IMG/VR virus record: IMGVR_UViG_3300040856_003274
Span: 64,001-128,000 of that record
Strand: one strand, 5' to 3'
DNA length: 64,000 bases
Origin: a virus
A program made the position numbers and the translations under genes. Numbering within the stretch: the stretch's first letter is position 1; the number at the start of each line of letters is the position of its first letter. Shown one piece after another: positions 11,568 to 64,000 of this stretch. Below the pieces are notes generated by a model. The model was not told the origin of the DNA and searched no databases. It saw only the letters and a program-made list of their open reading frames with translations.

Positions 11568-12617
11568 ATGAGTAAGCATGTATGTCCGTTCTGTAACTCT
11601 CGCGTCAACACTACCCGCAACTGTTGCGATAGCATGAAAGCTGTCCGTGACAGCATGGTTGAAGGAATCAAGAGAGCGCCTCTTCAAGAGGCGCTTTTTG
11701 GCGTTCCTTTGAGCGTCAACCAAACGGCCTACTCCCAAGAGGAGTTGCTCCCGTTCGATCCGCACTTTCAGCTTCCCCGTCAAGGGACACCCGCGTGGAC
11801 TTCTATGCGGAGGGTCGTAAAGGCTTGGGAGTCTAACAAGCCCTTCGTCGTAACGGGAGGCATGGGGCGCAGTAAAGACGCGATCCTCGGATTGCTCAGT
11901 AACCTCACCAATAGGCCGTGTCTTCTCATTAGCTGTGCTCGCTCAACCGATATTGAGGGATTCCTCTATACTCTCGGCTTCAACGCAGAGGGTACTAGCT
12001 ACTCTTATGGGGCTTTATGGAAGGCCCTCACAGAGGGGCATCCCCGAACGGGGGAGCCAATGGTGATCGTCTTAACAGATTTCGACAGGATGAGCCCTGA
12101 TCAGCTCGAAAGGTTTCGCATGATCCTTGATACGACCGCAGGGCGCATTAATGCTCCCGATGGTCGCATCGTGCCTATCAAGCCAGGTACTCTCATTTGC
12201 GCTACCGCTAACTCGGTTGGTAGTGGCGCGGAAGGGTATGTTTGCGAGGTCATTGATGAGTCTATGAAAGACCGCTTTGCGCGGTTCATCGAGGCTGAAG
12301 CGATGGACTCCACAGACAGGGCGCGTATATGCTGTGAGCGTTACTCAGCGCCCACAGAGTGGGTTGAGCCTATCGCAAACTGTCTCAGTGCTCTTGAGTC
12401 TAGTATAGCTCAAGAGGCGCTAGAGTCATTCAATGACTTCAGCTTCCGCGCAACCTCAGCATGGGTCGAGAGCGCTATGCAGGAGCTTGAGCTAGGGAGT
12501 GGGCAACCGCTCCGTGACGCGCTTTTCGATGTCCTCGACAAGCGCGAGCCCGAAGTGAAGCAAAAGATCGAAAACTTATTCGATCCTCACCTCCCTCGCG
12601 ATCCCGCAGGGAGCTGA
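11568..12617 (+). CDS. CobS/MoxR-like AAA+ ATPase with divergent Walker motifs
   Basis: Walker A-like GGMGRSKD, YGALWKAL, Walker B-like IVLTDFDR, sensor ATAN, arginine finger MKDRF, FSFR. N-terminal CxxC..CC; AAGGAG RBS. Confidence 0.85.
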   Translation: MSKHVCPFCNSRVNTTRNCCDSMKAVRDSMVEGIKRAPLQEALFGVPLSVNQTAYSQEELLPFDPHFQLPRQGTPAWTSMRRVVKAWESNKPFVVTGGMGRSKDAILGLLSNLTNRPCLLISCARSTDIEGFLYTLGFNAEGTSYSYGALWKALTEGHPRTGEPMVIVLTDFDRMSPDQLERFRMILDTTAGRINAPDGRIVPIKPGTLICATANSVGSGAEGYVCEVIDESMKDRFARFIEAEAMDSTDRARICCERYSAPTEWVEPIANCLSALESSIAQEALESFNDFSFRATSAWVESAMQELELGSGQPLRDALFDVLDKREPEVKQKIENLFDPHLPRDPAGS

Positions 12618-12663
12618 GACGCTGACTGAGACGCTGACTGAGACGCTGACTGAGACGCTGAGA
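12615..12663 (+). repeat. 12-bp tandem repeat TGAGACGCTGAC, about 4 copies
   Basis: Directly visible after the AAA stop codon. Confidence 0.85.
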
Positions 12664-12676
12664 TTACAGAACGGTT

Positions 12677-12734
12677 GAGAGCCCCCCTTCCTGCGCTTGC
12701 GTAGGTCGGGGGGCTTCTCTGTCGGGAGTAATCC
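12677..12734 (+). terminator. Hairpin + TGTCGGGAGTAATCC element
   Basis: GAGAGCCCCCC...GGGGGGCTTCTC stem followed by the conserved tail. Confidence 0.65.
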
Positions 12735-12788
12735 CCTAACCTTAAGCCCTAACCTTAAGCCCTAACCTTAAGCCCTAACCTTAAGCCC
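12734..12788 (+). repeat. 13-bp tandem repeat CCCTAACCTTAAG x4
   Basis: Directly visible. Confidence 0.85.
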
Positions 12789-12826
12789 CTTGCTCGCCTC
12801 CTCTGTGGAGGTCAGCAAGGGGCTTT
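12783..12826 (+). terminator. Second hairpin (AAGCCCCTTGCT...AGCAAGGGGCTTT)
   Basis: 12-bp inverted repeat with an inner stem. Confidence 0.55.
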
Positions 12827-13032
12827 CCTATACGGACTACTACCTAAAATCTGTATGAGGGTCGGGTCTGAGGTGGCTAGGTGAGGTGTGCGATTGCCTA
12901 GCCACTATGAGCACTTAGCCCCTAGAGCTTTTTGTGCTTATTTGCAAGCGAGGCGAACGAAACATGAGGGCTAGTGTGTATAGGAGATAGCAGGTGGCAA
13001 TCAGGCCACCGCTTCGACACAGGAGACAGCCC

Positions 13033-13647
13033 ATGAAGGCTACCCTAACTAAGTGCGAGCGTTTCGGCGCTGACCATAAGATGATTGATCACGGCTTCAG
13101 TAAGTACGCGATGCCAAGGCTCGGCACAGATGAGCAAGGTTCGCCCGTGGTGGTCTTACAGGTGTGGGATTACGATAACCCTATCCGTGAAGAGCAGATA
13201 CACCTCACACATCATGAGGTCGAGAGCGTGTCTCTCAGCAAGGGCCACGGCTCTTACTCAGAGGAGGGAGTCACGGCACACTATGCAGAGTGGACGTACA
13301 CGCTGACACTCACAGAAGAGGCGGGCTATGTTGTCTTAAAGGGAGTGGGTGATGAGATGGTGTTCATCTCTTGGACTGCGCTTTATGGAGACGGTCAGCG
13401 GAGCTTCCAAGACCAAGAGGGCAACGCGGTTATGTGGAGCGCGGGAGGCTTTCATGAAGAGCTCCCCTCGGTGGAGGATGAGGCTAGGGCGCTGGCGCGT
13501 CGGCTTAACCCGCTCACCGATCTTGACCTCATCTCTAGCCTCCGTGGTCTTTGGGAGCGCAAGCAAGGGTTGCGTCACCAAGCCTGCGACATACTACGCA
13601 AGGGGACTGCTAAGCTCCTCTTTGATGGTAAGCCACCTGAGGTCTAA
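13033..13647 (+). CDS. Hypothetical protein
   Basis: CAGGAG RBS before the ATG at 13033 (MKATLTK...); 204 aa. Confidence 0.75.
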   Translation: MKATLTKCERFGADHKMIDHGFSKYAMPRLGTDEQGSPVVVLQVWDYDNPIREEQIHLTHHEVESVSLSKGHGSYSEEGVTAHYAEWTYTLTLTEEAGYVVLKGVGDEMVFISWTALYGDGQRSFQDQEGNAVMWSAGGFHEELPSVEDEARALARRLNPLTDLDLISSLRGLWERKQGLRHQACDILRKGTAKLLFDGKPPEV

Positions 13648-13648
13648 T

Positions 13649-13792
13649 CTCTCGGAGCGTCAGCTCTCGGAGCGTCAGCTCTCGGAGCGTCAGCTCTCGG
13701 AGCGCCTGCTCTCGGAGCGTCAGCTCTCGGAGCGTCAGCTCTCGGAGCGCCTGCTCTCGGAGCGCCTGCTCTCGGAGCGTCAGCTCTCGGAG
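13649..13792 (+). repeat. 15-bp tandem repeat CTCTCGGAGCG(TCAG/CCTG), 9 full copies plus a partial
   Basis: Directly visible; marks the left edge of the non-coding array. Confidence 0.9.
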
Positions 13793-13799
13793 GATTTCT

Positions 13800-16700
13800 T
13801 ACTGTCTAAAATCTGTATGGGGGGTCGCGGGTGCAGGTACGGGGGAGGAGGTTGGAGGTACTCATACACTCGCGAGGCTGAGGAGGTCTTGAGGTTGAAG
13901 GCGCTCATACACTCGCGAGGCTAGACCGCTTGAGGCTTGGGAGTGTTCATACAAGTAGAGAGTGTGGCTACCTTGTGGAGGTGCTCATACAGAGGTGGCG
14001 GGTGGCGGGTGGAGCTAGACTGTGAGAGTGTTCATACAGAGAGGGAAGAGGAGGAGGGGAAGATGGAGGCACTCATACAGAGAAGGTGAGGGGAGGGGGA
14101 AGGTGGAGGCACTCATACAGAGAGGGAAGAGGAGGAGGGGAAGATGGAGGCACTCATACAGAGAGGGAAGAGGAGGGGGAAGGTGGAGGCACTCATACAG
14201 AGAGGGTGAGGGGAGGCTTCGGTGAGGGTGTTCATACAGAGGCGGTGGGCGAGGGTGAGGTTGGGTGAGGTTGGGTGAGAGTGTTCATACATTACTCTCT
14301 TCAGTCCTCCAAGACGTGTGGGTGCTCATACAGAGTAGAGGAGGACGAGCTACCCGCTGACCTTAGGGAACAGGGGAGAGGGAGGAGGGGGAGAGGGGGT
14401 CGCGTATGTGAGGTGTAGGTGTTCATACTCGCACGCGTACAACGCTCAACGCTCAACGGTTGACCTTAGGGAACAGGGGAGGTGGTGCAACCCTCAACGC
14501 TCAACGGTTGACCTTAGGGAACACACCCAATAACGCTCAACGGTCGCAACGCTCAACGGTATGTGTTGACGCTAGGGAATGAGCACAACCTCCAACGCTA
14601 ACATTAGATGTGGGTGTTCATACATACGCGAAGCCGTGGCTCTGTATGAGTTGACCTTAGGGAACAGCAGAGAAGCTAGAGGCGCGTTGACCCTGTAGCA
14701 TTAGGTGTGGGTGTTCATACAGAGGCTGGCTAAAATCTGTAACGCGTGCGCGTATGCGCCATGTGCGCCTGACCCTCAACGCTATAAGTTGACCTTAGGG
14801 AACAGGTGACCGCCTGAGTAGTTGAGCTAGAGGTCAGGTGAGGACTCGGCCCTGTAATATTAGATGTGAGCGTTCATACAGGGTGGGGGGGCTGTGGTGA
14901 TCTCGCATAGCCTTGTGTGACGTTAGGGAATGGAGAGGGCTCAACCCTAACATTAGATGTGGGCGTTCATACAAGGTGGGGGGCTAGGCGCGTGAGCCAG
15001 CTTGACATTAGGGAATGGGAGGAGGTGAGAGGGCCTCTCAATCAATCAACGACAAAGCCCTCTCATGTACAGGTTCTAGCCAGGCAGGTTTTCCAACACC
15101 GCGCTTAACGAGTCTTTAGAACCTGTATAGCGCACAAGAGAGGCTCGGTCGCCTCTCAAAATCGGCTGAGCTAGAGTAGTTTAAGTGGGGACATTCATAC
15201 ACGCGTGTGTCTCAAAAGCCCCATTTTACGGCACTTAGGAAGTTGCCGATTTTGATAGGATGAGCGAGGCGAGGGCTAGAGAGGCTCAAAAGGGGCTCAG
15301 AGAAGGCTCTAATGTTATGTAGGTGTTCATATAACGAGGGGTGGGCGGGTGCGGTGAGTGAGGCGCGAGTGGAGGTGGCGCGAGGGTAACCCTAATAACC
15401 TACTTAGAACCTGTACAGGCTGTGGTGGGGTGTAGCTGAGCTGAGCCGAGACACGCTGACGTTAGGGAACAGGTTATGGCTTACTGAGCCTGTGGAGGCT
15501 GACATTAGATGTGGGCGTTCATACAGACAGGGTGTTTAGAACCTGTAGCGCGGAGGCGAGCTCTCGCCTCTTACTGACTCGCTCAACACTATGAGCTGAC
15601 GTTAGGGAATGGGTAGCGGGCTTGAGCTGAGCTTGGGCCTAACTGAGTCTGACATTAGGGAACAGTTGGGCGGGAGGGGTCGGTGGCGACCCTAACGTTA
15701 GATGTGGGCGTTCATACTACTCTTTATCTAAAATCTGTATTAGGGGGTTCGGGCGCATCTGTAGAGGCGGGCTCTCGTATGTGTTGACGTTAGGGAACAT
15801 CTAGACAGGGGGCAGAGCTGAGAGCAGACACGCTCAGCCCAACTCGCAATATTAGATGTGGGCGTTCATATAATGAGCGGTGGGCTGGTTGGGCTCACTC
15901 CTTGTACACTTGACGTTAGGGAACAGCTCGCTTGTCTTGAGCGCCCCGCGCCACCTCTCGCTCCTATGTGATGTGGGCGTTCATACAGACAGGCGGGGCT
16001 CGCCCTTAAGACACGCTCCTTGACATTAGGGAACAGGGAGACAGGTTGCGCTCTCTCCTGTCACGCTCTGAGACACCTTGACTCGTTCGCTCAAGGCTAC
16101 TAGAACCCGTATAGTTAGAACCTGTATAGGTCGCGCTCAGCCTCTCTGCTTGAGCCTTGAGCAGGGCTCTAGTGGGTGGATGATGGGGACATTCATACAC
16201 GCGTGGGGGGCTCAAAAGCCCCAAAATAGGGCTCAAAATGGTTGCCGTCTTTGATAGAGAGGCGTTTTGCCCCCTCTGAGCCTCTCTCTGAGCCCTCTAG
16301 CGGTAGCTGTTATAGGTATTCATATAAGAGTGGTGGCTGTGAGGCTGAGCGAGCTTGCGCAGGCTCGCGTGGAGTCTCCTAGTGCTTCCGCGAGCTGTCG
16401 AGAGAGACGCGAGGGTGACCCACCCGTTGGCTTGACGTTAGGGAATGGGCAGAGGCTATTTAGAACCTGTATGATGAGCAAGCACCCGCCCTCTGACATG
16501 ATGTCGGTATTCATATAATGAGCGGTGAGCCCCGCCTCGCCTCCCTAACCTTAGTTTGACATTAGGGAACAGTGGGCGAGGGTGGGCGAGGCGGCACAGC
16601 ACCCCTAATGTCATGTCGGCGTTCATATAGCGAGCGGTGGGCTGTCTCCTTCAAGGCAAGCTGGCTTGACGTTAGGGAATGGTAACGGGAGCTGACCTTG

Positions 16701-19700
16701 ACCCTCACCTGCTGTGGCTTGACATTAGGGAACAGTGGACGAGCTCTCCTGAAGCTAGGCTAGAACCTGTATAATCTAAAATCTGTATTAGGGGGCTCGG
16801 AGGGCTACCGACCCCTCCCGTAATATTAGATGTAGGCGTTCATATAAAGACGATCTCGCCTTGCCCCTCTAGACTGGTAGACGCTAGGGAATAACTAGCC
16901 CTATCTAAAATCTGTATTAGGGGGCTCGGAGGGGCTATCGCACCCTCTACGGTCTGATGAGAGCGTTCATACAAGGTCGGTGCTGAAGCAAGGCTCTCGT
17001 ATGTGTTGACGTTAGGGAACAACAGGTCGGCTCGAAATCTCCCTGTGGCGAGCGCCCCTTTACAGGTTCTAGCTAGCCTTGTACGGCTGAGGGCGGGTCG
17101 AGTAGCTCAAGCAGCACCCCACAGGCTAAGTTGACATTAGGGAACATTACAGCGGCCTTAGCGTCAGCGTCTCTAACATTAGCCTAATATCATGTCGGCG
17201 TTCATATAAGGGCTGAGCCGAGATCGTCCTAGCTCGTATCTGCCGTGGCTTGACGTTAGGGAACAGGCGGGCAGAGGTGAGCCAACCTAAGAGATAAAAT
17301 GTAAACATTCATACAAGGAGCTAGGGCTACGCTCAGATGACCCAATATACCTGACGTTAGGGAATAGCTCAGCCTGACAGGTAGCCCTTTTGCCTCGCTT
17401 GATGTTAGGGAACATCAGGGCTACCCTCGCGCTTGTCTGAAGTCGGCTTGAGATACGCGGAGCGCCCCTCTCACGTTCGGATGTAAACCGCGCCCACACG
17501 CTAAGCTCTACTAGAACCTGTATAGAGCCCGACTCAGAGTGCTTTGTTGGGGACATTCATACCCGTAGAGAGGGCCAAAACACCCTCCAAGAGGGCTATT
17601 TTTGTTGGCGACTTTGATAGGATGGGGCTCAAACCCCCGAAAATACGGTACTTTTTGTTGGCGACTTTGATAGACCTATTTTTCGTGGGATCATTCATAG
17701 CGTGTGCGGGTGAGAGCGGCTTTTTGGCTCGCCTTTTGGAGAGACTAGAACCTGTATAAACTAGAACCTGTATGGTACTAGAACCTGTATAATACTAGAA
17801 CCTGTATGGTACTAGAACCTGTATAATCTCTCTTATGTGGGACCATTCATAGCGTGTGCGGGTGAGGGTGGCCTTTTGGCTCGCCTTTTGGAGAGACTAG
17901 AACCTGTATAATACTAGAACCTGTATAATACTAGAACCTGTATGGTACTAGAACCTGTATGGTACTAGAACCTGTATAATACTAGAACCCGTATAATCTC
18001 TCTTATGTGGGATCGTTCATAGCGTGCGTATGTGAGAGGACGCGCTCCCCCTCCTAGACGATGTAGGCGTTCATACATACTTAGAACCTGTATGGTACTA
18101 GAACCTGTATAATACTAGAACCTGTATGGTACTAGAACCTGTATGGTACTAGAACCTGTATAATACTAGAACCTGTATGACCTGAGCCTCCCCCTAGGTG
18201 ATGTAGGTATTCATACAGGGGGGGCTGACCCCCCCCCTCCCCTGTGAGTTGACCTTAGGGAACAGCAGACAAGCCTAGAACCTGTATAATATTAGAACCT
18301 GTATAATACTAGAACCTGTATAATACTAGAACCTGTATGACCTGAGCCTCCCCCTTGTCCCTTGTGTTGACGTTAGGGAACAGGGGGGGTGAGCCTCCCC
18401 CTAGAGGATGTCGGTATTCATACAAGGAGGGCGAGCCCCTTTTAGTTGAAGGTTAGGGAACAGTAAAACGTCTCAGATCGCTCTCTGAGGCGCTTTAGCT
18501 CTCAAGCCTGCTCTACCCCTAGCTTAAGGACTCTAAAGAGCACACGAGCGAATTTAGAGCCCTCCCTCGAAGGCTTTAAGCTGGTTATGCGACCCGCCAA
18601 AAGACCCCCTAGATGATGTAGGTATTCATACAGGGCGGGCTGAGGGTGGCTCAGGGCAACCCCTTGTGTTGAGGTTAGGGAATGGGAGAGGCTGTTTAGA
18701 ACCTGTATAATATTAGAACCTGTATGACCTGACCCGACCCTGCCCCTTGTGTTGACGTTAGGGAACAGGTGGCCTGAGCCTCCCCCTAGATGGTGTCGGT
18801 ATTCATACAGGGCGGGCTGAGCCTCCTCCTCCCTTGTTGAGGTTAGGGAATGGAAGGAGCTGTTTAGAACCTGTATGGTACTAGAACCTGTATGACCTGA
18901 CCCGACCCTGCCCCTTGTTGACATTAGGGAACAGGTAGCCTGACCCTCCCCCTAGATGGTGTCGGTATTCATACAGGGCGGGCTGAGCCTCCTCCTCCCT
19001 TGTTGAGGTTAGGGAATGGAAGGAGCTGTTTAGAACCTGTATGGTACTAGAACCTGTATGGTACTAGAACCTGTATGACCTGACCCGACCCTGCCCCTTG
19101 TTGACATTAGGGAACAGGAGGCTAGGCTGACCCCCTAGAGGATGTAGGTATTCATACAAGGCTCCCCCTAGGCGCTCCCCCTCCCTTGTTGAGGTTAGGG
19201 AATGGGAGAGGCTGTTTAGAACCTGTATGGTACTAGAACCTGTATGACCTGACCCCCCCCCTCCCCTTGTTGACATTAGGGAACAGGAGGGCTAGGCTGA
19301 CCCCCTAGAGGATGTAGGTATTCATACAGGAGGGCTGAGCCTCCCTCTAGGCGCACCCTCTTGTTGACATTAGGGAATGGGAGGAGCTGTTTAGAACCTG
19401 TGTAATATTAGAACCTGTATGACCTGACCCCCCTCCCCTTGTGTTGACATTAGGGAACAGGAGGCTAGGCTGACCCCCTAGACGATGTAGGTATTCATAC
19501 AGGGTGGGCTGGGGGTGGCTCAGGACGCACCCTCTTGTTGACACTAGGGAACAGGGGGCTGTTTAGAACCTGTATAATATTAGAACCTGTATAGCATGGG
19601 CTCCCCCTAGGCGCTCCCCCTTGTGTTGAGGTTAGGGAACAGGAGGGCTAGGCTGACCCCCTAGATGGTGTCGGTATTCATACAGGGCTCCCCCTAGGCG

Positions 19701-20960
19701 CTTCCCTTGTGTTGAGGTTAGGGAATGGGAGAGGCTGTTTAGAACCTGTATGGTACTAGAACCTGTATGACCTGACCCCCCCTCCCCTTGTGTTGACGTT
19801 AGGGAACAGGAGGGCTAGGCTGGCCCCCTAGACGATGTAGGTATTCATACAGGGTGGGCTGGGCCTCCCCCTAGGCGCACCCTGTGAGTTGACATTAGGG
19901 AATGGGAGGAGCTGTTTAGAACCTGTATGACCTGAGCCTCCCCTCCCCTTTGTTGACGTTAGGGAACAGGCGGCTAGGCTGACCTCCTAGATGGTGTCGG
20001 TATTCATACAGGGTGGGCTGGGGTGGCTCAGGACGCACCCTGTGAGTTGACATTAGGGAATAGGAGAGGCTGTTTAGAACCCGTATGACCTGAGCCTCCT
20101 CCTCCCCTTGTTGACGTTAGGGAACAGGTGGCCTGACCCTCCCCCTAGGCGCTCCCCTGTGAGTTGACGTTAGGGAACAGGTGGCTAGGCTGACCCCCTA
20201 GATGGTGTTGGTATTCATACAGGTGGCCTGAGCCTCTCAGGACAGCCCCTCCCTTGTTGACATTAGGGAATGGGAGGAGCTGTTTAGAACCTGTATGACC
20301 TGAGCCTCCTCCTCCCCTTGTTGACGTTAGGGAACAGGCGGCCTGAGCCTCCCCCTAGAGGGTGTCGGTATTCATACAGGTGGCCTGAGCCTCCCTCTCC
20401 CCTGTGAGTTGACATTAGGGAACAGGTGGTCTGACCCTCCCCCTAGGCGCTCCCCCTTGTTGACATTAGGGAACAGGTGGTCTGACCCTCCCCCTAGAGG
20501 GTGTCGGTATTCATACAGGTGGGCTGGGGGTGGCTCAGGACAGCCCCCCTTGTTGACGTTAGGGAACAGGAGGGCTAGGCTGACCCCCTAGAGGATGTAG
20601 GTATTCATACAGGGGGGGTGGGCCTCCCTCTAGGCGCTCCCCTTGTTGACGTTAGGGAACAGGGGGGGTGGGCCTCCCCCTAGGCGCTCCCCTTGTTGAC
20701 GTTAGGGAACAGGGGGGTGGGCCTCCCTCTAGGCGCTCCCCTTGTTGACGTTAGGGAACAGGGGGGTGGGCCTCCCTCTAGGCGCTCCCCTTGTTGACAT
20801 TAGGGAACAGGGGGGGTGAGCCCCTGTGGAGCCTCCCCCTTGTTGACGTTAGGGAACAGGGGGGGTGAGCCTCCCCCTAGAGGATGTCGGTATTCATACA
20901 GGGGGTGAGCCCCTGTGGAGCCTCCCCCTTGTTGACATTAGGGAACAGGGGGGGTGAGGC
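13800..20960 (+). repeat. ~7 kb non-coding array of co-oriented motifs: A TTGAC(G/A/C)TTAGGGAA(C/T), B GATGT(A/C/G)GG(T/C)(A/G)TTCATAC, C TAGAACCTGTAT / TAAAATCTGTAT
   Basis: More than 50 copies of motif A counted by eye and dozens each of B and C; no credible ORF in the region. Confidence 0.92.
17745..18340 (+). repeat. Blocks of 17-bp tandem repeat TAGAACCTGTAT(AA/GG)TAC
   Basis: Four runs of 4-6 direct copies, separated by motif B/A segments. Confidence 0.9.
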
Positions 20961-21364
20961 CGATTGGAACACGCGGGGCGCTCCCCAGCCCCCCCCAAAT
21001 AGCCATATTAAACCTGCATGGAAAATGACAACCTTAATTTGAAACCCTCTTTAAGAAAGGTATTTCCTCTCAGAGAAGGGGGTCAAATGCAGGCGCATGG
21101 GACTTTCTCGCGGAGGGAAGGGGGGTATGCTTATATATTATTGGGTTTTGAGCGCGGAGGTATGGACTTATTAAAGGGGTTTGTCTCAGGGAGGGGGGTC
21201 ATATAGGGGGGCTTTTTGGTTTTGGTTTTACGGGGAAGTGGATCTTAAATTTCTTTTGGCTAATTTTTTTTGAGGTTGTTTTTGAAAAGGGGTGTGTGGG
21301 TGTTAGAGCTCCTATAACGTGACTAAGGTAAAACCTTCATTAAGACGAGAGGTAAGGTTACGCT

Positions 21365-22387
21365 ATGAGTGCTAAACATAAGAGAGACGTGGAGTTGCTT
21401 TTGTCTTATATGCCTGACAATGGTTTCTTACAGGGCTTATCAAACAGACTAAGGACAGGTATGAGCTTGACACCTAAGCAGGTGAGCGCCTTGGAGGGTA
21501 TTAAAGCTCGAATGTCGTCTAAGCAAGCTAAGATTAAGCGAGACAAGGCGAGGGTATCAGAGGCTCTAAGGGTATATTCAGAGAACCCTTTCTTGCAGAG
21601 TCTCTTGGAGCATTTAAGTGACGGCAAGTCTATGAGCGCGAAGCAAGACGAGGCGTTAACGGCAATCGAGGAGAGAGCCGCTCGTAGATTAGCGAATATG
21701 GAGAGGCGGTCTGCTGGAGTTAAGCGTGAGATGTTGAGTGTCTTGAGGGGTTTATCTAGAGTGTCTGACTTGAGCCCTGAGGAGAGTGAGTTTGTGAGGC
21801 GCATGATGAGTCTAGTGGAGGGCGACCTTAAGATTAGCGTGAGGCAGAAGAGTTACATTAGGGGTTTATGTAGTAGGCATTTGGACTCGGCGCGTGGTCG
21901 TAGCTCTGCGGATAAGTTTGGTGCTAAGGTGAAGAAGCATTTTGGTGGGAGGGGTAAGAAAGCGTCGGTGAGTCGTGCTTGGGATTATGACAGGGGGGAG
22001 TGGGCATATCGTGTGGGTGGTGGTAAGATTAAGTATGCGAGTGAGGAGGTCTTAGATTACAAGGTTGAGTGGGGTGATCCGCCGAAGCCTAATGCGTGGA
22101 GAGCAATACTTAAAGGTAGGATGTCAGATGGTCGTATTGAGGTCACTTCGCCTTTGATTGTGGGGAGGATTATGTTCAACATCTTCCCTCATGAGATAGA
22201 TGTTTCTTACAGACGTAAGGGTTACTCTGCTGTTGACCTTGGGACGATCAGGAGGCATGGCGACATGGACAGTATTTTCAGTCATGCGACGTACACTAAG
22301 TATATTAAGCCTGCGATTTTGAGTGGTGCGCTTGAGCTGGGGAGTCAGGGGAAGAAGATCGCTTCAGGAGAGGGGTTTGAGGGATGA
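21365..22387 (+). CDS. Protein with three N-terminal F..(S/G)......(L/M/I)(S/T).(K/R)Q helical repeats and one C-terminal WGDPPKPN module
   Basis: GAGG RBS; KKAS, KYAS and KIAS linkers; module 1 starts at ~22070. Confidence 0.85.
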   Translation: MSAKHKRDVELLLSYMPDNGFLQGLSNRLRTGMSLTPKQVSALEGIKARMSSKQAKIKRDKARVSEALRVYSENPFLQSLLEHLSDGKSMSAKQDEALTAIEERAARRLANMERRSAGVKREMLSVLRGLSRVSDLSPEESEFVRRMMSLVEGDLKISVRQKSYIRGLCSRHLDSARGRSSADKFGAKVKKHFGGRGKKASVSRAWDYDRGEWAYRVGGGKIKYASEEVLDYKVEWGDPPKPNAWRAILKGRMSDGRIEVTSPLIVGRIMFNIFPHEIDVSYRRKGYSAVDLGTIRRHGDMDSIFSHATYTKYIKPAILSGALELGSQGKKIASGEGFEG

Positions 22388-24144
22388 GCACTTATAGTCT
22401 TAAAGCTCAATGGGGAGCACCCCCGAAGCCTAACTTGTGGAAGGTAGAGCACAGTGAAGACCATCAAGGTCATAATAAATGGACGGTCACGTCCCCTGCG
22501 ATGGCAGGCGCTGTAATGCTAATTCACTCTAAGAAAGCCTATCCTGAATGGTGGGTAAACTACTATAGGGATAGGAAAGAGACGCATAGTAGGTCTACTA
22601 ACTATAAACGGATTTATAGTTATTTTGCCCACGCAAATGGAGAAATGACGGACGCTGAATGTTTCAAGCATTTTTTTAGTGAGGGGTTTTACAGGGAAGT
22701 AATCACAGGTTTTATTAAAAACGGTTTGATTGAGCTCAAAGTGCCTAAGGTAGCTTCTTCTAACCTTGAGGCTCAATGGGGCGACCCTCCTAAACCTAAT
22801 GTGTGGAAAGTAGAGTACGATAAGGCTTTTACTCAGTACACGATCAAGTCGCCTGTGTTAGAGGGTCATTTCGTTGTGAAGATGTACCCACCTAGCTCGG
22901 CGGAGATAAAATTCTTTGACGCTACAAGAGGAGTGACTTGGGCGAGGTATCTCAGCCCTGTAACGATAGAGGATATCTTGTCTCGTCAATTCTATCTTGA
23001 GAGCATTAAACCTGCGATTTATTTGACGCAGGAGATAAGACTTAAGAAAGGCTTAAAAGTGGCTTCTTCAGAGATTAAACTTCAATGGGGCGACCCTCCT
23101 AAACCTAATGTGTGGAAGGTAAAAGAGAGGCCAGGGAGAGGTGTTAAACACCGTGGTTACATCTTCGACATCTCTACACCTTTAGACCCTTATCTAGGGA
23201 TAACGATCCATCAAAGTCCATCTAACTGGGGAACAAGAAAAGCCTATAGGACAGCCGTGTATTACGGGTCTAGCTGTCTTATTGAGAATGCGGCTGGCTT
23301 TCTTGTCTCTGAAGGTGCTCATCCCGCAGATACTTTCAGCACTCAGTCTTTTTGGGATCGCATAAAAGATGAGATTAGAGATAAGACACCTACTTCTATG
23401 AAGGTAGCTTCTTCTAACCCTCAAGCTCAATGGGGCGACCCACCTAAGCCTAACATATGGAAGGTGGAGACGCTTCAACGCTCTAAGATGGTCGCGCTAA
23501 CTCGCGTAACTTCACCTGTCTTACAGGGCTCAATATGGCTTGGCGTATATGGGGCGGTTTTTTACTGCCCACATGACAAGATGCCCTCACCTCTTACAGA
23601 AGAAAAGATGGTAGAGTTTGAGAACAATCTTGATCCGACGAAAGACCATGTTGATATTACAAGGATCATGGGGATCAATCCAAAGAGACTTTTCCTCTCT
23701 AATAAGTTTTATTTAGAGCACTTAGCGCCTAAGATTGCAGGCGGGATCATTAGGTTAAACGGTAATGTTAAGGTTGCTTCAGGAGAGGCTCTCAAAGCGA
23801 TGTGGGGCGACCCCCCTAAACCTAACGTATGGTCGGTTGAGGAGGTTAGATATGGCTGGGAGCCAATGTATCGAGTGTTCTCACCTTTGATGGAGGGTGA
23901 GGTATGGTTAAGCGACTCGCTTCTCGTTTACTACTTCCCCAAGGGCTTAGGTCTTCCTCAAAGAAAACTAGGGCCTGACTGTGACCTGCGAAGCCTATCG
24001 TTAGTAGACGGTAACTACCCGTTGCAGAGGTTAAAAAGCGCCAAGAGCAAAGAGCACTTCTTGTCTCAAGCGTTTTGGTTAGAGCACCTTAAGAGCAATA
24101 TACATCTTAAAACAAGTAAGCTGGCTTCTAAGAGAGGTAAATAA
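22384..24144 (+). CDS. Five-module WGxPPKPN repeat protein (putative polyprotein)
   Basis: Modules at 22411, 22777, 23086, 23431 and 23803, each ending in K(V/L)AS. Confidence 0.88.
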   Translation: MSTYSLKAQWGAPPKPNLWKVEHSEDHQGHNKWTVTSPAMAGAVMLIHSKKAYPEWWVNYYRDRKETHSRSTNYKRIYSYFAHANGEMTDAECFKHFFSEGFYREVITGFIKNGLIELKVPKVASSNLEAQWGDPPKPNVWKVEYDKAFTQYTIKSPVLEGHFVVKMYPPSSAEIKFFDATRGVTWARYLSPVTIEDILSRQFYLESIKPAIYLTQEIRLKKGLKVASSEIKLQWGDPPKPNVWKVKERPGRGVKHRGYIFDISTPLDPYLGITIHQSPSNWGTRKAYRTAVYYGSSCLIENAAGFLVSEGAHPADTFSTQSFWDRIKDEIRDKTPTSMKVASSNPQAQWGDPPKPNIWKVETLQRSKMVALTRVTSPVLQGSIWLGVYGAVFYCPHDKMPSPLTEEKMVEFENNLDPTKDHVDITRIMGINPKRLFLSNKFYLEHLAPKIAGGIIRLNGNVKVASGEALKAMWGDPPKPNVWSVEEVRYGWEPMYRVFSPLMEGEVWLSDSLLVYYFPKGLGLPQRKLGPDCDLRSLSLVDGNYPLQRLKSAKSKEHFLSQAFWLEHLKSNIHLKTSKLASKRGK

Positions 24145-24145
24145 A

Positions 24146-26332
24146 ATGAGCATTCAGTTAAGAGTTATGTGGGGCGATCCTCCCAAGCCTAATGTGTGGC
24201 AGATTAAGCATACTCCTGCAATCCCTGCTAGGAAGAAGTCTGAGAGTTGGGTCATTCAGTCGCCTTTGCTCCTTACTAGCTTCACTGTCTACAAGAGAAA
24301 GCAGACAGGCAGGTTTGTTGTTTACTACGGCGAAGGTCTTAATACAGGTAAGGTTTCAGGTAATAACGGAGATTGGTATTTAGAGTACATCTTGTCTAAT
24401 GAGTGGTACATGGAATACATAAAGCCTCTTATAGAGAGCGGATATATTAGGAAGCGAGATGATAACCTCAAGATCGCGAGTGAGATGAAGGACGCAGAGG
24501 TCATGTGGGGCGATCCTCCTAAGCCTAATGCGTGGAAAGTCTTCTTTGAAGACGGCTACGGCGCTAGAAATGACCGATGGAGGGTAGTGTCGCCTCTTAT
24601 TGTGGGACGTATTTTGATAGTGGAAGACGGCCCTTACTTCCGCTTTTCTTATGTCGTCAGCCTCAAAAATTATGTTACTATGTTTAGTGTGCCTAAGAAT
24701 AAAGTGAAAGGTAATACGCTCGGCAAGGCGCTGTTTAGTCACGCGATGTGGGAGAAGATAAGACCTTATGTTACGGACGGGACGATTGTCCTCAACGTAC
24801 CCAAGATTGCTTCAGAGCAACTTCCAGGTAATCTCGAAGCTCATTGGGGGACTCCTGCTAAGAAGAACATATGGAAGGTAAGAAACATCTTCAACAACCC
24901 TGATATGGTTGAGGTCACGTCACCTTTTATGGAGGGTGCGATTGAGGTGCATACTAACCAAGGTTATTCTAACGGGATTTACTACCCTGATTTGAATAGC
25001 ATTGAGGGTAAAGTGGCGCTTTGGAAAATAGAGAGGGGAGATTTAAGCTACGTCTTGAGCTCAGAAGGTTACAAGAACCTTATAAAGAAGCATATCGACA
25101 TGGGAGTTATTAAGATTAAGAGAGGCTCTAAGGTAGCGTCCTCAGAGATTAAGCTCCAATGGGGTGACCCCCCTAAGCCTAATATGTGGAAAGCAGAGCG
25201 GATAAAAGGGAGCACTCAATCTCGTTTAACGTACTTAATAACCTCACCTCTATTTAGGAGGACAATAGACGGTGATCGGTTTGCGCTAAAGGTACAAATC
25301 GACCCGTGGGCTAACGAGGCTATCATCAACCTATTTTACCAATATAACGCTAGAACAGGGATGCCTTTAGGTACTTATCAACTGTCAGAAGACTACTTCC
25401 ACAACATCGACCATTTACTTGCTCATTCTTCTACATGGGCGCTTGCGATAAAGCCAGCTTTAGCTCGCGCTGAGAGAGAATGGAGTCAGTCGATATTAAC
25501 AAGTAAAGTAGCGTCTACTGCTGTTAAACTCCAATGGGGTGATCCCCCCAAGCCTAATATGTGGAAGGTTAGACGCTATTTGGGTCAAAACAACTTTATT
25601 ATCACATCGCCTTTATTTAGTGATGTTTATAACTACGGTGGCGACGTTACGGCGCTAAGGGTAAGCATATCAAGAAGCACCAACCCCAATCGCGGCACGT
25701 TTATACCCAAAGCATCTTTCAGCTTCGGGTTGTTGGAAGAAAACGGCAACTTTATAAATAAGGTTAGCGGAGGTGAGAAGTTTGATAAAGACTTTGAGCT
25801 AGAGGTGGTCAATAATCGAGTCCTTCTAAACTCTGAAGAAGTGTTGAAATCACATAGCTTTTGGAAAAATGCCGTAAAACCTGCATTAGAGAACATAAGC
25901 ACAGGATGGTCATACGGAGAGGTTTTCAAAAGTAGAGTAGCCTCCCTCCGCACTAACTGGTTTCCTGACCATGTAACAAGTAACCCCCAAGTTAAGCTAA
26001 ATTGGGGGAGCCCTGCGAAGCCTAACATTTGGAAGGCTTGGAGAGGCGATAGCGGAGACTCTTTCTTTTACTACATAGAGTCACCTTTGTTGAAAGACAC
26101 TTGCATAGAGATCCGTGTAGACCAAAGGAGCACTGTGGCAGAGGTTTTCTTCTATGATGACAATGATGGGGACATGCGAAAAGTTAAGCATATAAGTCTT
26201 GCTTCTAGAGGGACTGACCCCTTTGAGTTAGATGAGGATGTTCGATCAGAGGAGTTTTGGAATTTTGTGGTTAGCCCTCAGCTTAAGGGACACGGGCATC
26301 TCAACAATGTTAGGATCGCCTCTGAGTTTTAA
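24146..26332 (+). CDS. Six-module WGxPxKxN repeat protein (putative polyprotein)
   Basis: Modules at 24170, 24506, 24845, 25160, 25535 and 26003, each ending in (K/R)(V/I)AS. Confidence 0.88.
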   Translation: MSIQLRVMWGDPPKPNVWQIKHTPAIPARKKSESWVIQSPLLLTSFTVYKRKQTGRFVVYYGEGLNTGKVSGNNGDWYLEYILSNEWYMEYIKPLIESGYIRKRDDNLKIASEMKDAEVMWGDPPKPNAWKVFFEDGYGARNDRWRVVSPLIVGRILIVEDGPYFRFSYVVSLKNYVTMFSVPKNKVKGNTLGKALFSHAMWEKIRPYVTDGTIVLNVPKIASEQLPGNLEAHWGTPAKKNIWKVRNIFNNPDMVEVTSPFMEGAIEVHTNQGYSNGIYYPDLNSIEGKVALWKIERGDLSYVLSSEGYKNLIKKHIDMGVIKIKRGSKVASSEIKLQWGDPPKPNMWKAERIKGSTQSRLTYLITSPLFRRTIDGDRFALKVQIDPWANEAIINLFYQYNARTGMPLGTYQLSEDYFHNIDHLLAHSSTWALAIKPALARAEREWSQSILTSKVASTAVKLQWGDPPKPNMWKVRRYLGQNNFIITSPLFSDVYNYGGDVTALRVSISRSTNPNRGTFIPKASFSFGLLEENGNFINKVSGGEKFDKDFELEVVNNRVLLNSEEVLKSHSFWKNAVKPALENISTGWSYGEVFKSRVASLRTNWFPDHVTSNPQVKLNWGSPAKPNIWKAWRGDSGDSFFYYIESPLLKDTCIEIRVDQRSTVAEVFFYDDNDGDMRKVKHISLASRGTDPFELDEDVRSEEFWNFVVSPQLKGHGHLNNVRIASEF

Positions 26333-28063: not shown

Positions 28064-29065
28064 ATGGCTACAATGAGTTTTGGTGAGAACAACGCGGCAC
28101 ACGGTAAGTGGAATGTGTTCACAACTATGTTGAGCGTCGAGGACTTGATCGAGTTACTTTCTAAGAATGTCTCCCCTAACGAAGAGATTTGGAAGACTGA
28201 CTTTTACAGCGGTAATAAGAAAGCAGGAGTGACCGCGCTTCAACGCGAACCAACAGCATCTCGTATTGACCCTCTCAAGCGTTATATCGAGAGCAATATC
28301 GTGGATGACAATGCTGTGTTTGCAGGGGCGCTCCCTGCGCTATCCGTGGCTGTGATGGGTGATCTTAAGCCTTCTCCTAACGGCGGTATTATCGTTAAGT
28401 GGGATAACGACTTTAAGGCTGTCCTCGTTGACGGTATGGGGCGCTATTCTTCACTCTCGGCGCTCTTCGCGAGTGATCGTAAGAAATATAACATTAACGT
28501 ACCTGTAACCTTTTACACGATGGAGGGTCTTGAAGAGGACGGGTGTCGTCAAATCCTGCATGACTTTAACCGTTATGCGACAACCATGCGCCCTGTGTCT
28601 GCGTCTCAGTTTGATAGCAACGACATCTTGCGCCCCTTTGCAGATAGCTTGTATGAGAAGCTCACGCAAGCAGGTTTCCGTGTCTCTAAAGGACACATGG
28701 CGAACGCGTCTTATATGTTTTATACATCGACAGACCGCTTCTACTCCGCGACTAAGGAGACAAAGAACAGGAAGCACCTGTTAACGGCTGAAGTCGTCAA
28801 TGACAAGGGCGATGTAGATACAATCGCTCAGTGGGTTGTCGATTGCATCAATATCCCTTCTGCCAAGAAGAATAAGCTCAAGGCGACAACTGTGCAGAAC
28901 CTCTTGCATGGGTTAAGCCAGGTGCGTGGGGTTTCCGCTAGCGATGTTCGGGTAGACTTCACAAAGCCTTTCGTGAGCACTTTAGGGTGGAATGACTCGC
29001 TCCGCGTTAAAGATCAGTTTGACCGTAACCAACGTCTGCTCAATCTCCGCACTTTCGCACCCTAA
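28064..29065 (+). CDS. DGQHR/DndB-like (ParB/Srx superfamily) protein with variant motif
   Basis: LQRE...RI...YI, PALSVAV, LVDGMGR (where DGQHR is expected), VPVTFY, QILHDFN; GGAGG RBS. Confidence 0.65.
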   Translation: MATMSFGENNAAHGKWNVFTTMLSVEDLIELLSKNVSPNEEIWKTDFYSGNKKAGVTALQREPTASRIDPLKRYIESNIVDDNAVFAGALPALSVAVMGDLKPSPNGGIIVKWDNDFKAVLVDGMGRYSSLSALFASDRKKYNINVPVTFYTMEGLEEDGCRQILHDFNRYATTMRPVSASQFDSNDILRPFADSLYEKLTQAGFRVSKGHMANASYMFYTSTDRFYSATKETKNRKHLLTAEVVNDKGDVDTIAQWVVDCINIPSAKKNKLKATTVQNLLHGLSQVRGVSASDVRVDFTKPFVSTLGWNDSLRVKDQFDRNQRLLNLRTFAP

Positions 29066-63404: not shown

Positions 63405-64000
63405 TTATTCAATCATTATGAACTCTACACCGCCGACACCATTTTCTTTATCGACTCTGTAGAGTGCTACTTGCCTACGATTTCCGACATAGCCTTTAAG
63501 TCTGTGCCAGCGATCCGTCCCACTTAAACTAGGCATCGTCCACACACGGCAACCGTTAAACTCATCGGCTCTAACCTTATGACCATGCCAGTGTCCCGTA
63601 AACCATTCCCAACCGCCTTTACACTCACCCCAATCCCCTGCGCGGTCTATCGCCATAACTGAAGGTAGGTCGCTCGCTTTTGTCCCGTCTCCGTGGTGAA
63701 AGCCCAAGAGTGAGTTACCGTGGCGAGTGTAAGAAAAGCCGTCCTTCGCGATGTCAATCTCCACGGAGCTAATGTCATGGTAGCGAGCTTTTAACATTAA
63801 GCCGACACTTAAGCCTAAAACCCTATCGTGATTACCTGGGATCGCCACGACTTTTACAGGAGCAACTTTCCTGAGCCCTTCGATGATCTGCTCTAGTGCC
63901 ATAAACGCAGTAGACAGCATATCAATGGGATCGCCGTCTACGTCTTGAGGCGTGCCTTGCGTAGTGGTGTTTTGGTAGTTGTCGATATGGATCATATCGC
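63405..64000 (-). CDS. Calcineurin-like metallophosphoesterase (5' part outside the window)
   Basis: PGNHD, HHGD and TGHWH motifs. Confidence 0.8.
   Translation of the reverse strand, partial: DMIHIDNYQNTTTQGTPQDVDGDPIDMLSTAFMALEQIIEGLRKVAPVKVVAIPGNHDRVLGLSVGLMLKARYHDISSVEIDIAKDGFSYTRHGNSLLGFHHGDGTKASDLPSVMAIDRAGDWGECKGGWEWFTGHWHGHKVRADEFNGCRVWTMPSLSGTDRWHRLKGYVGNRRQVALYRVDKENGVGGVEFIMIE

Follow-up and report, generated by a model that had tools for sequence, protein, structure and literature searches.

Iteron arrays such as P1 oriR/incA, RK2 oriV, F oriS/incC, and the Vibrio cholerae chromosome 2 origin (12-mers and 39-mers) hold 4–15 sites in ≤1 kb, together with an adjacent Rep gene, DnaA boxes, and an AT-rich unwinding element. 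Direct-repeat centromeres include R1 parC (10 x 11 bp), F sopC (12 x 43 bp), and tubC of pBtoxis and phage c-st, and P1 parS has two box types that are read by one protein. Viral episome maintenance uses the family of repeats of EBV oriP (20 x 30 bp). At mapped phage DNA ends, the short-repeat arrays of T7 adjoin the terminal repetition, and T5 carries repeats at the injection-stop and terminal-repeat junction; these end regions span 0.2–2 kb. Phage origins, centromeres, pac sites, and injection-stop regions are 5–50 times smaller than the array analyzed here. Closest in scale are the tandem maintenance/enhancer repeats of herpesviruses and baculoviruses, not a known phage origin, centromere, or pac site. 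We know of no phage cis element of comparable size and complexity, and our literature searches did not turn up any report of an array like this one. With phage genomes packed so tightly, keeping 7 kb of non-coding DNA conserved represents a large investment.

The array occupies 13.8–20.96 kb of the window, the 64,000-nucleotide stretch that was analyzed, and contains no conserved ORF; the longest ORF within it encodes 140 aa on the − strand of the tandem zone. The source record (168,266 bp) is a fragment of a huge phage genome, about 40% by CheckV. Three kinds of motif give a total of ~150 sites. Motif A, TTGACRTTAGGGAAY, is bipartite, with TTG, five variable bases, and TAGGGAAY. Motif B has the core TGTnGGnnTTCATACA. 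Motif C, TAGAACCTGTAT, often stands in a 17-bp tandem, and a C variant, TAAAATCTGTA, has 5–6 copies in the array. All 57 A copies and all ~47–49 B copies are on the + strand, as are the 47–49 C copies except two. Scans of the window were compared with 100 dinucleotide-preserving shuffles per motif. They returned 61 matches to A against 1.7 expected (≤3 mismatches; 57 inside the array), 54 to the B core against 5.1 (≤2 mismatches; ~47 inside), and 58 to C against 5.6 (≤2 mismatches; 47 on the + and 2 on the − strand of the array). A scan of the whole record shows that A, B, and C are confined essentially to this locus. The sequence-only reading had described a non-coding array of ~7 kb written in three co-oriented motifs; the counts bear this out, and each of the five zones it distinguished is present (Table 1).

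The repeat-rich locus begins left of the array, with tandem repeats at 12614, 12734, and 13649, and is prolonged on the right by a conserved non-coding leader. The reverse complement of the 13-mer repeats contains AGGTTAGGG, the A core, so the left edge carries sites that resemble the A core but face the other way. Motifs in the array are separated by gaps of 4–182 nt. The G+C content of the array is 54–61% compared to ~47% elsewhere, and the lowest 100-bp values between 12.5 and 21.4 kb (35–38%) fall within the C tandems and the leader. The B-type sites of zone 1 lie ~40 bp apart (13.86–14.33 kb) with purine-rich spacers. In zone 4 the gaps are fixed, at 14 nt from A' to C, 6 nt from C to C, and 25 nt from C to A, with ~37 nt from A to B and ~32–35 nt from B to A'.

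Table 1. Coordinates of the repeat locus and its neighbors in the window.
Feature	Position	Strand	Description
12-mer tandem repeat CTGAGACGCTGA	12614..12661	+	4 copies, directly after the CobS-like gene; copy number differs among relatives
13-mer tandem repeat CCCTAACCTTAAG	12734..12788	−	4.2 copies; 2–6 in relatives
Hairpin	12783–12825		Precedes the first C-variant copy
First C-variant copy CTAAAATCTGTAT	12845..12857	+	~190 nt upstream of the 204-aa gene; kept in relatives
204-aa orphan gene	13033..13647	+	Within the repeat locus; product acidic, pI 5.2
15-mer tandem repeat CTCTCGGAGCGTCAG	13649..13792	+	9.6 copies; copy number variable in relatives
Zone 1	13807..14332	+	One C-variant copy, then 12 B-type sites (..TG...G...TCATACA)
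Zone 2	14357..17523	+	A/B/C mixed, spacers unique
Reverse-oriented C copies	15067–15078 and 17060–17071	−	Both inside zone 2
D element, copy 1	15186..15262	+	GGGGACATTCATAC, short GC hairpin, GTTGCCGAYTTTGATAG
D element, other copies	~16184–16262, 17548–17625; partial 17630–17700		
Zone 3	17685..18338	+	C blocks in 17-bp tandem (5, 6, 6, 4 copies; 17.74–18.34 kb), B-like elements between
Zone 4	18600..20360	+	Homogenized higher-order repeat B - A'(..GGGAAT) - C(C) - A(..GGGAAC), ~160–185 bp
Zone 5	20409..20946	+	A units predominate, 49–50 bp period (20.6–20.95 kb); few B sites
Conserved non-coding leader	20958..21364	+	Boundary boxes plus G-run/T-run tracts
Boundary box CCGATTGGAAMACG	20960–20973		Sits in the G-run/C-run stem of the leader
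Leader box CATATTAAACCTGCATGGAAAAT	21004–21026		
Two leader boxes TCTCAGRGARGGGGGT	21068 and 21184		
340-aa gene	21365..22387	+	Downstream of array and leader in every lineage found
DndB-like (DGQHR) gene	28064..29065	+	Downstream neighbor of the array

An independent 96-kb ENA contig, L163, covers the whole array with an almost identical motif order, and the gene calls of its collection list none in the orthologous 6.9 kb. Partial arrays are present in L160, L161, L171–L174, and L187, and the carriers include JGI, ENA, and Logan contigs, with ENA ERZ27275810, JGI 3300028126, and Logan DRR337555 among the sources. In the tandem zones, copy number and unit order turn over between lineages while the motifs are retained; zone 1 has 9 B copies in L163 versus 12 in the window, and the zone 3 copy numbers of L163 and L187 are unlike that of the window. 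Zone 2 is collinear unit by unit in 7 relatives. Distant lineages, in which the adjacent protein is 43–52% identical, keep TTG-N5-TAGGGAAY, ATGTCGGTGTTCATACA, and the right-boundary boxes between unrelated spacers, and they retain only the TTG of the TTGAC start of A.

The conservation of motifs and spacers was compared across the orthologous zone 2, pooled over the 7 relatives. Spacers diverge at 1187 of 11,514 sites (10.3%), whereas divergence is 32/1292 (2.5%) in A cores (Fisher p 2e-25), 20/774 (2.6%) in B cores (p 1e-15), and 3/737 (0.4%) in C (p 3e-29). The motif cores are thus 4 to 25 times better conserved than the spacers, and no constraint is seen in the 9 nt that precede the B core (9.9%). 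The spacers look neutral because their divergence between the window and L163 (~5%) matches that of fourfold-degenerate sites in the downstream genes (3–6%). Gene conversion is unlikely to have caused the motif conservation because the flanks in zone 2 are unique. Purifying selection holds the motifs, and the spacers change at an approximately neutral rate. In these comparisons, selection preserves the three short words and the order they take locally, and the intervening DNA is not its target. These data identify the array as a real functional element of unusual size.

The sequence-only reading named mis-assembly and poor motif conservation in related phages as outcomes that would speak against it. 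The array was assembled independently, with one contig (L163) spanning all of it, and the motifs are conserved. A neutral satellite DNA or an assembly artifact, either of which would lack function, could explain why tandem copy number varies among relatives, as by slippage and unequal exchange, and why an N gap interrupts the array in one scaffold. However, unit order agrees in assemblies from at least 10 different samples, the cores are better conserved than the spacers where the flanks are unique, and the motifs persist in lineages at 43% protein identity. This explanation is extremely improbable and is already contradicted.

The explanation that we favor, with a probability of roughly 0.45, is that the array is a cis-acting platform of ~150 putative duplex-DNA sites for sequence-specific proteins, maintained by selection. 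The A, B, and C sites are most likely double-stranded DNA binding sites, and the proteins that would bind them are probably phage-encoded. With their fixed local syntax, the sites could organize a kilobase-scale nucleoprotein structure directly upstream of the conserved G-run/T-run leader and a conserved gene. The two invariant parts of A are spaced approximately one helical turn apart with a free middle, the geometry that would be expected of a protein contacting one face of duplex DNA. The sequence-only reading had proposed selected protein-binding sites rather than slippage. Selection on binding-type motifs is strongly supported by the conservation of the cores; protein binding, and with it the role of the complex, is what we infer. 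The array may represent an undescribed class of kilobase-scale cis element in huge marine phages, multi-motif and syntax-governed, with ~150 sites, a large nucleoprotein body, and new binding proteins, a proposal that we make tentatively. If phage proteins bind the sites, the array would provide a handle on the replication, organization, or protection of ~400-kb huge-phage genomes, and the motif definitions are precise enough to design pull-down or DAP-seq experiments.

The platform could act in replication control or in iteron-type titration, although we consider this specific role unlikely. The array presents multiple direct repeats in non-coding DNA, here in three families and in far higher copy number than is known from any origin. 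Like iteron arrays, it has co-oriented direct repeats of 12–22 bp with conserved cores and free spacers, and it adjoins a conserved gene and a distinct non-coding tract; iteron arrays can also have more than one site class, and extra sites can titrate. It differs in having ~150 sites over 7 kb and in its surroundings. No DnaA box (≤1 mismatch) or IHF consensus was found in 12.5–21.4 kb, no AT-rich tract was found at the array, and no Rep-like match was obtained for the gene products beside it. The sequence-only reading had listed an origin among its candidates, with cumulative GC skew as a check. On the 40% fragment, cumulative skew keeps rising through the array with no inflection and tracks gene orientation. 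A DnaB-like helicase gene is located 70 kb from the array.

A role of the platform in genome tethering, segregation, or organization has similarly low odds. The array shares with the direct-repeat centromeres and the EBV repeats tandem co-oriented sites, which form one large complex in the known systems, and a variable copy number. In contrast, it is ~10 times longer and has three motifs with a syntax. Searches of the 168-kb record, which lacks ~60% of the genome, gave no AAA_31 (ParA), tubulin/TubZ, or ParB_N match, and a StbA (ParM) search run without a positive control gave none either. The only hint of segregation is the conserved DndB-like neighbor, since we take DndB to be grouped with ParB-like domains. 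Its gene is conserved downstream of the array in all 4 lineages with known downstream context, and we treat the product, of which the structural model is poor (pLDDT 55.9), as a lead to a site-binding protein and no more.

The immediate neighbors were examined as possible partners. The 340-aa protein is 43–95% identical across lineages; its N-terminal domain is made of helical repeats, and it carries a single module of the WGDPPKPN family, which the phage has in multiple copies. It has no family match and no PDB sequence match, and the Atlas search returned only unnamed viral clusters. Its AlphaFold model (pLDDT 72.5; ~90 in the N-terminal half) has no Foldseek PDB match at E≤0.001, and no DNA-binding or Rep-like fold was matched; the protein may be a novel initiator. 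The 204-aa protein is 87–94% identical in close relatives and 39% identical in L162, with no family or PDB match. That neither neighbor matches a DNA-binding fold or family weighs against a platform. Partner proteins may be missing because the record covers only ~40% of the genome. Besides the two neighbors and the DndB-like product, candidate binders are a 480-aa multi-HTH protein encoded on the − strand from position 63405 of the window and a triple-HTH protein of 130 aa in the relative L183.

The leader boxes and tracts occur at a single locus in the genome and are kept even where the neighboring protein is only 43% identical. Every reading frame in the leader is broken by G-run length polymorphisms. 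A small ORF at 21018–21206 matches a called ORF in L183 (tblastn); we do not regard it as coding, since the frames called differ among relatives and changes in G-run length cause frameshifts.

The main rival to the DNA platform is that the array acts as a transcribed RNA. A long, poorly structured, G-rich transcript would be read rightward with the flanking genes or from the C sites that contain TAAAAT/TATAAT, and its repeated motifs would sequester or scaffold an RNA-binding protein or serve in R-loop priming at the G-run/T-run leader. We regard this as somewhat unlikely. The motifs share their orientation with the flanking + strand genes, and the + strand of the array has a G>C skew resembling that of the sense strand of this phage's genes; both properties would fit a transcribed element too. 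There is no terminator-like site at the array entrance, and there are 3 within the array compared to 7.1 expected. Inverted repeats are few to nearly absent, and 6 of the 7 canonical G-quadruplex motifs of the record fall on the array + strand. TATAAT or TAAAAT is found within C and its variant, and a copy of the variant upstream of the 204-aa gene is promoter-like in its position.

Other data argue against an RNA. An Rfam search gave no match at E≤1. Folding of the tandem units and of a D element gave z-scores of −1.1 to −1.6, which are not significant, and covariation was not found (the term is ~0 in the leader alignment). The reverse C copy at 17060–17071 shows no change in 5 relatives, against 8–18% divergence in its flanks (about two independent lineages, roughly p 0.04), and the left edge of the locus retains A-core repeats in reverse orientation. 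Such conservation is not required of an RNA motif. Duplex-DNA recognition fits better than RNA recognition because the constraint on the motifs is orientation-independent.

Promoter activity was considered in the same context. The motifs are not general promoters because they are absent upstream of all other genes, which also speaks against the RNA explanation. Sigma-70-type promoters, defined by −35 and −10 hexamers spaced 16–18 bp, are not enriched in the array (3 versus 4.8 expected in shuffles). A TAnnnT hexamer (TAGGCT, 3 of 6) lies at promoter spacing in 9 of the 57 A copies; eight of these nine derive from one homogenized unit, and one is outside it. A search of the record for a T7-type RNA polymerase, run without a positive control, was negative.

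The array might instead be a physical landmark of the linear virion DNA, such as a packaging recognition site, a terminal-repeat junction, or an injection pause. The locus is unique, non-coding, repeat-dense, and strongly polar, and known phage end regions, those of T7 and T5 among them, likewise carry several families of short repeats, dense and co-oriented. Across the locus there is an abrupt change in divergence, from 47% of fourfold sites in the CobS-like gene to 3–6% downstream of the array, and this would fit a recombination-prone end. However, in both long contigs (168 kb and 96 kb) the array has an interior position, no terminase gene was recognized nearby among the ORFs scanned, and 7 kb with ~150 sites is an order of magnitude above the T7/T5 precedents. 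We consider a landmark quite unlikely.

Titration of a host DNA-binding factor by the platform is a doubtful possibility. As a decoy proper, the array would consist of sites that mimic the targets of a host regulator, a nucleoid protein, or a defense sensor, with titration rising as the phage genome replicates. The very many sites, multiplied by genome copies, would suit such a function, as would strong motif selection in the absence of a linked recognizable phage binder and the −35-like TTGAC with which A starts. Against this, the A-to-B composite pattern and the leader box are absent from 185,579 prokaryote species genomes, and an array with so strict a syntax, and with its boundary and leader conserved, resembles an assembled structure rather than a plain sink. 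We consider a decoy very unlikely. Either a decoy or an RNA role would make the array a large phage-encoded sponge of a new kind.

Zone 2 resembles a CRISPR array in that short conserved repeats alternate with unique spacers in one orientation. The array differs in having three repeats of 12–22 bp instead of one of 23–47 bp and spacers of 4–182 nt instead of a uniform length, and its spacers are orthologous in relatives and slowly drifting, not acquired. No cas genes were found among the ORFs scanned. GAAC/GTTC, which we take to be the phosphorothioation consensus, occurs in A, B, and C; it is lost in common variants (GGGAAT, TATTCATACA, CTCATACA), and for this reason we rejected it as the feature under selection.

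No DNA similarity to known phages was detected in 50,697 phage records. The sole protein-level relative among known phage genomes is LR745208.1 (485 kb), from which the flanking genes and any similar array are both absent. Exact-motif scans of IMG/VR returned chance single matches only, and a tRNA search was empty. The leader boxes together with the motifs recognized every member found of this marine phage lineage and provide a practical marker for it.

Motif and tandem-repeat mapping showed that the five zones described in the sequence-only reading are all real: B-only; mixed A/B/C with unique spacers; C 17-bp tandems; homogenised B-A'-C(C)-A units, A' being an A copy that ends in AAT; and mostly A. 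The array holds 57 copies of motif A (TTGACRTTAGGGAAY) and ~49 of motif B (core TTCATACA after TGTnGGnn), all on the + strand, with 47 copies of motif C (TAGAACCTGTAT) on + and 2 on -, bearing out the >50 A copies and the nearly exclusive use of one strand noted earlier; within these totals the homogenised-zone numbers come from short-read assemblies, may be collapsed and are minimum estimates, because short-read assemblers evidently struggle here (the scaffold of one relative, L187, has an N gap). A C variant (TAAAATCTGTA) occurs five times within the array and a sixth time to its left. The A, B and C counts are each 10-35x the expectation from shuffled sequence, and the proposed whole-genome scan found only isolated near-matches outside the array in the whole 168 kb. 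Conserved cores in the diverged zone are 13-14 nt (A), ~17 nt (B) and 11-12 nt (C), and information content is zero just outside them. There is no ORF >140 aa between the flanking 204-aa and 340-aa genes. Of seven canonical G-quadruplex motifs in the record, six are on the array + strand, and GATC is ~2.6-fold rarer than expected in 12.5-21.4 kb.

Coordinates of the repeat locus and associated features (window positions unless marked genome or with a contig name)
Feature	Position	Remarks
Mosaic divergence, left segment	11568-12617	compared with L163
Tandem repeat, 12 nt	12614-12661	perfect or near-perfect
Tandem repeat, 13 nt	12734-12788	perfect or near-perfect; reverse-oriented A-core
C variant, sixth copy	12845	
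204-aa gene	13033-13647	
Tandem repeat, 15 nt	13649-13792	perfect or near-perfect
Array	13800-20960	
D element	15186-15262, 16184-16262, 17548-17700	repeated element
Reverse C	17060-17071	
Leader	20958-21364	L163:9575-10005, L165:64-485, L168:420-880, L183:130-545
340-aa gene	21365-22387	
Mosaic divergence, right segment	21365-27966	compared with L163
Matches to L183 358-aa protein	21365-26332; genome 36.4-39.6, 49.6-52.2, 160-164 kb	tblastn, 22-31% identity
DndB-like gene	28064-29065	
480-aa protein	63405-64000, on to genome 128847	- strand; HTH at residues 2-35, 112-139
Topoisomerase IB	genome 46597-48168 (L178:8597-10168)	- strand; outside window
N gap in ENA scaffold	L187:1690-1789	100 N, inside tandem part of array
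130-aa protein	L183:3470-3862	

Contigs of relatives (ENA, JGI, Logan) were reached via homologues of the CobS-like protein (81-90% identity) and the 340-aa protein (43-95%). One of these, L163, part of a 96-kb ENA contig, spans the whole locus with 6.9 kb free of called genes. Its motif string nearly equals that of the window, and this independent contig contradicts the mis-assembly considered earlier. The two differ mainly in tandem-zone copy numbers (9 versus 12 in the B-only zone, shorter C blocks in L163, which has 51 A, 43 B and 36 C overall). Collinear array portions are present in L160, L161, L171-L174 and L187. The higher-order unit of L187 is A'-C-B, unlike that of the window; hence there is turnover in the tandem part, with motifs and local gaps preserved. 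Conservation extends to L168 and L183, in which the neighbouring protein has just 43-52% identity: both keep TTG-N5-TAGGGAAY and ATGTCGGTGTTCATACA among unrelated, G/C-rich spacers, along with the boundary box CCGATTGGAAMACG and the box CATATTAAACCTGCATGGAAAAT.

Zone 2 (14200-17820) was aligned to seven relatives and differences were compared by site class. Spacers differ at 1187/11514 positions (10.3%, rising to 17-21% in L171 and L173), compared with 32/1292 in the A core (2.5%, Fisher p 2e-25), 20/774 in the B core (2.6%, p 1e-15) and 3/737 in C (0.4%, p 3e-29); these p values overstate independence, since the window lineage enters each comparison and some of the relatives are mutually close. 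The stretch of 9 nt before the B core (85/861, 9.9%) does not differ significantly from spacers. The motifs diverge less than the spacers in all pairs but one, the short L161 alignment, in which this holds for A and C only. The spacers look neutral because their divergence between the window and L163 (~5%) equals that at fourfold sites of the downstream genes (3-6%). These data uphold the earlier claim that motifs are conserved while spacers drift. That the whole array is neutral satellite DNA is scarcely credible.

The order of sites is non-random. The gap is 14 nt from an AAT-ending A to C, 6 nt from one C to the next (a 17-bp period), 25 nt from C to an AAC-ending A, ~37 nt from that A to B, and 32-35 nt from B to A. 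A fourth repeated element, D, consists of GGGGACATTCATAC, a short GC hairpin and GTTGCCGAYTTTGATAG, and is kept in relatives. Its third copy has a compensatory change in the hairpin, and its first is flanked by a 15-nt inverted repeat.

Our favoured reading of the array is a DNA-level platform to which proteins would bind, with a probability of about 0.45. Motif A is bipartite, because its middle five bases vary freely, and roughly one helical turn separates its two invariant parts. The reverse C is unchanged between flanks that differ by 8-18%, as seen in about two independent lineages (p roughly 0.04), and the reverse A-cores at the left edge are conserved. These features are evidence for what would be recognition of duplex DNA, and they favour the DNA-level platform over a role of the array as transcribed RNA. 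The RNA-level role is unlikely, even though the motifs share the orientation of the flanking genes and the + strand G>C skew is typical of this phage's sense strands. The array has no Rfam match, and its RNA fold z-scores reach only -1.1 to -1.6.

Iteron, centromere and terminal-repeat arrays likewise place co-oriented short protein sites among free spacers, but on the testable defining features the array does not qualify as either an iteron origin or a partition locus. A classical origin is not supported: DnaA sites, IHF sites and an AT-rich tract are absent, and cumulative GC skew, suggested earlier as an origin test, has no inflection at the array. A partition locus is not supported either, with ParA, ParM, TubZ and ParB_N missing from the 168-kb fragment (~40% of the genome), in which no T7-type RNAP was found either. 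CRISPR does not fit three motifs, irregular gaps and spacers orthologous between relatives. Motif A qualifies as a full promoter in one homogenised unit only, with a 3-of-6 -10 hexamer; sigma-70 promoters and terminators are not enriched in the array, and a palindromic element does not fit, just two inverted repeats >=14 nt within 200 nt having been found. A genome-end, packaging or injection landmark is improbable. We know of no phage or plasmid example that matches the scale and three-motif syntax, and the array could, tentatively, represent a new class of large phage cis element.

The left-edge tandem repeats surround the 204-aa gene, and each relative examined has its own copy numbers (for example 2-6 of the 13-mer and 3-18 units of CTCTCGG). 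The ~400-bp leader on the right is conserved blockwise even in L168, with blocks that match fully in lineages where the adjacent protein shares just 43% identity. The leader is non-coding, because changes in G-run length break every frame. Besides the two boxes retained in L168 and L183, it contains two TCTCAGRGARGGGGGT boxes and G-run/T-run tracts resembling the telomere repeats of ciliates; its boxes are unique within the genome. A G-run and a C-run flank the boundary box and have changed places in L168, a compensatory change that would fit a stem; overall covariation in the leader alignment is nil. Divergence between the window and L163 is sharply mosaic, with fourfold-site differences of 47% in the CobS-like gene on the left, 3-6% in genes to the right and 18% in the DndB-like gene. 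This pattern suggests that recombination breakpoints may lie at or near the repeat locus.

The window covers bases 64001-128000 of a 168,266-bp IMG/VR virus record. That record is linear by its classification and ~40% complete, with 60% of the genome absent, and is thus a fragment of a ~400-kb phage. The gene repertoire, consistent with a huge myovirus-like marine phage, includes a sheath-domain protein of 1894 aa, a baseplate J protein, a 1392-aa tail protein 44.7% identical to its counterpart in uncultured phage LR745208.1 (485 kb), a DnaB-like helicase, an SNF2 helicase, a type IB topoisomerase, and auxiliary genes for PEPCK, Fe/Mn-SOD, PhoH-PIN and a CobS-like plus VWA pair.

Three candidate partner proteins are offered, purely as leads. 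In all lineages found, the array is followed by the 340-aa gene; the N-terminal half of its modelled product is a confident helical repeat, and the model has no fold match. The genes after the array belong to a multi-copy, multi-module family (WGDPPKPN modules), since a 358-aa protein of L183 matches many places by tblastn. The DndB-like (DGQHR) gene lies downstream of the array as a neighbour conserved across the window, L163, L168 and L183. In L183 it adjoins the gene for a 130-aa three-HTH protein, which has no homologue in the 168-kb record and weakly resembles Cbp1 (E 6e-7, below the family cut-off), the binder of CRISPR DNA repeats in Sulfolobus. The array as a decoy for host factors is a long shot. 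A 480-aa protein beside structural genes has at least two separate HTH regions and is possibly another multi-site DNA binder. The topoisomerase IB is of the eukaryote/poxvirus type, and [CT]CCTT, which we take to be the target pentamer of the poxvirus enzyme, has 33 occurrences on the array + strand versus 7 on the -, and immediately precedes 27 of the 57 A copies, mostly in homogenised units.
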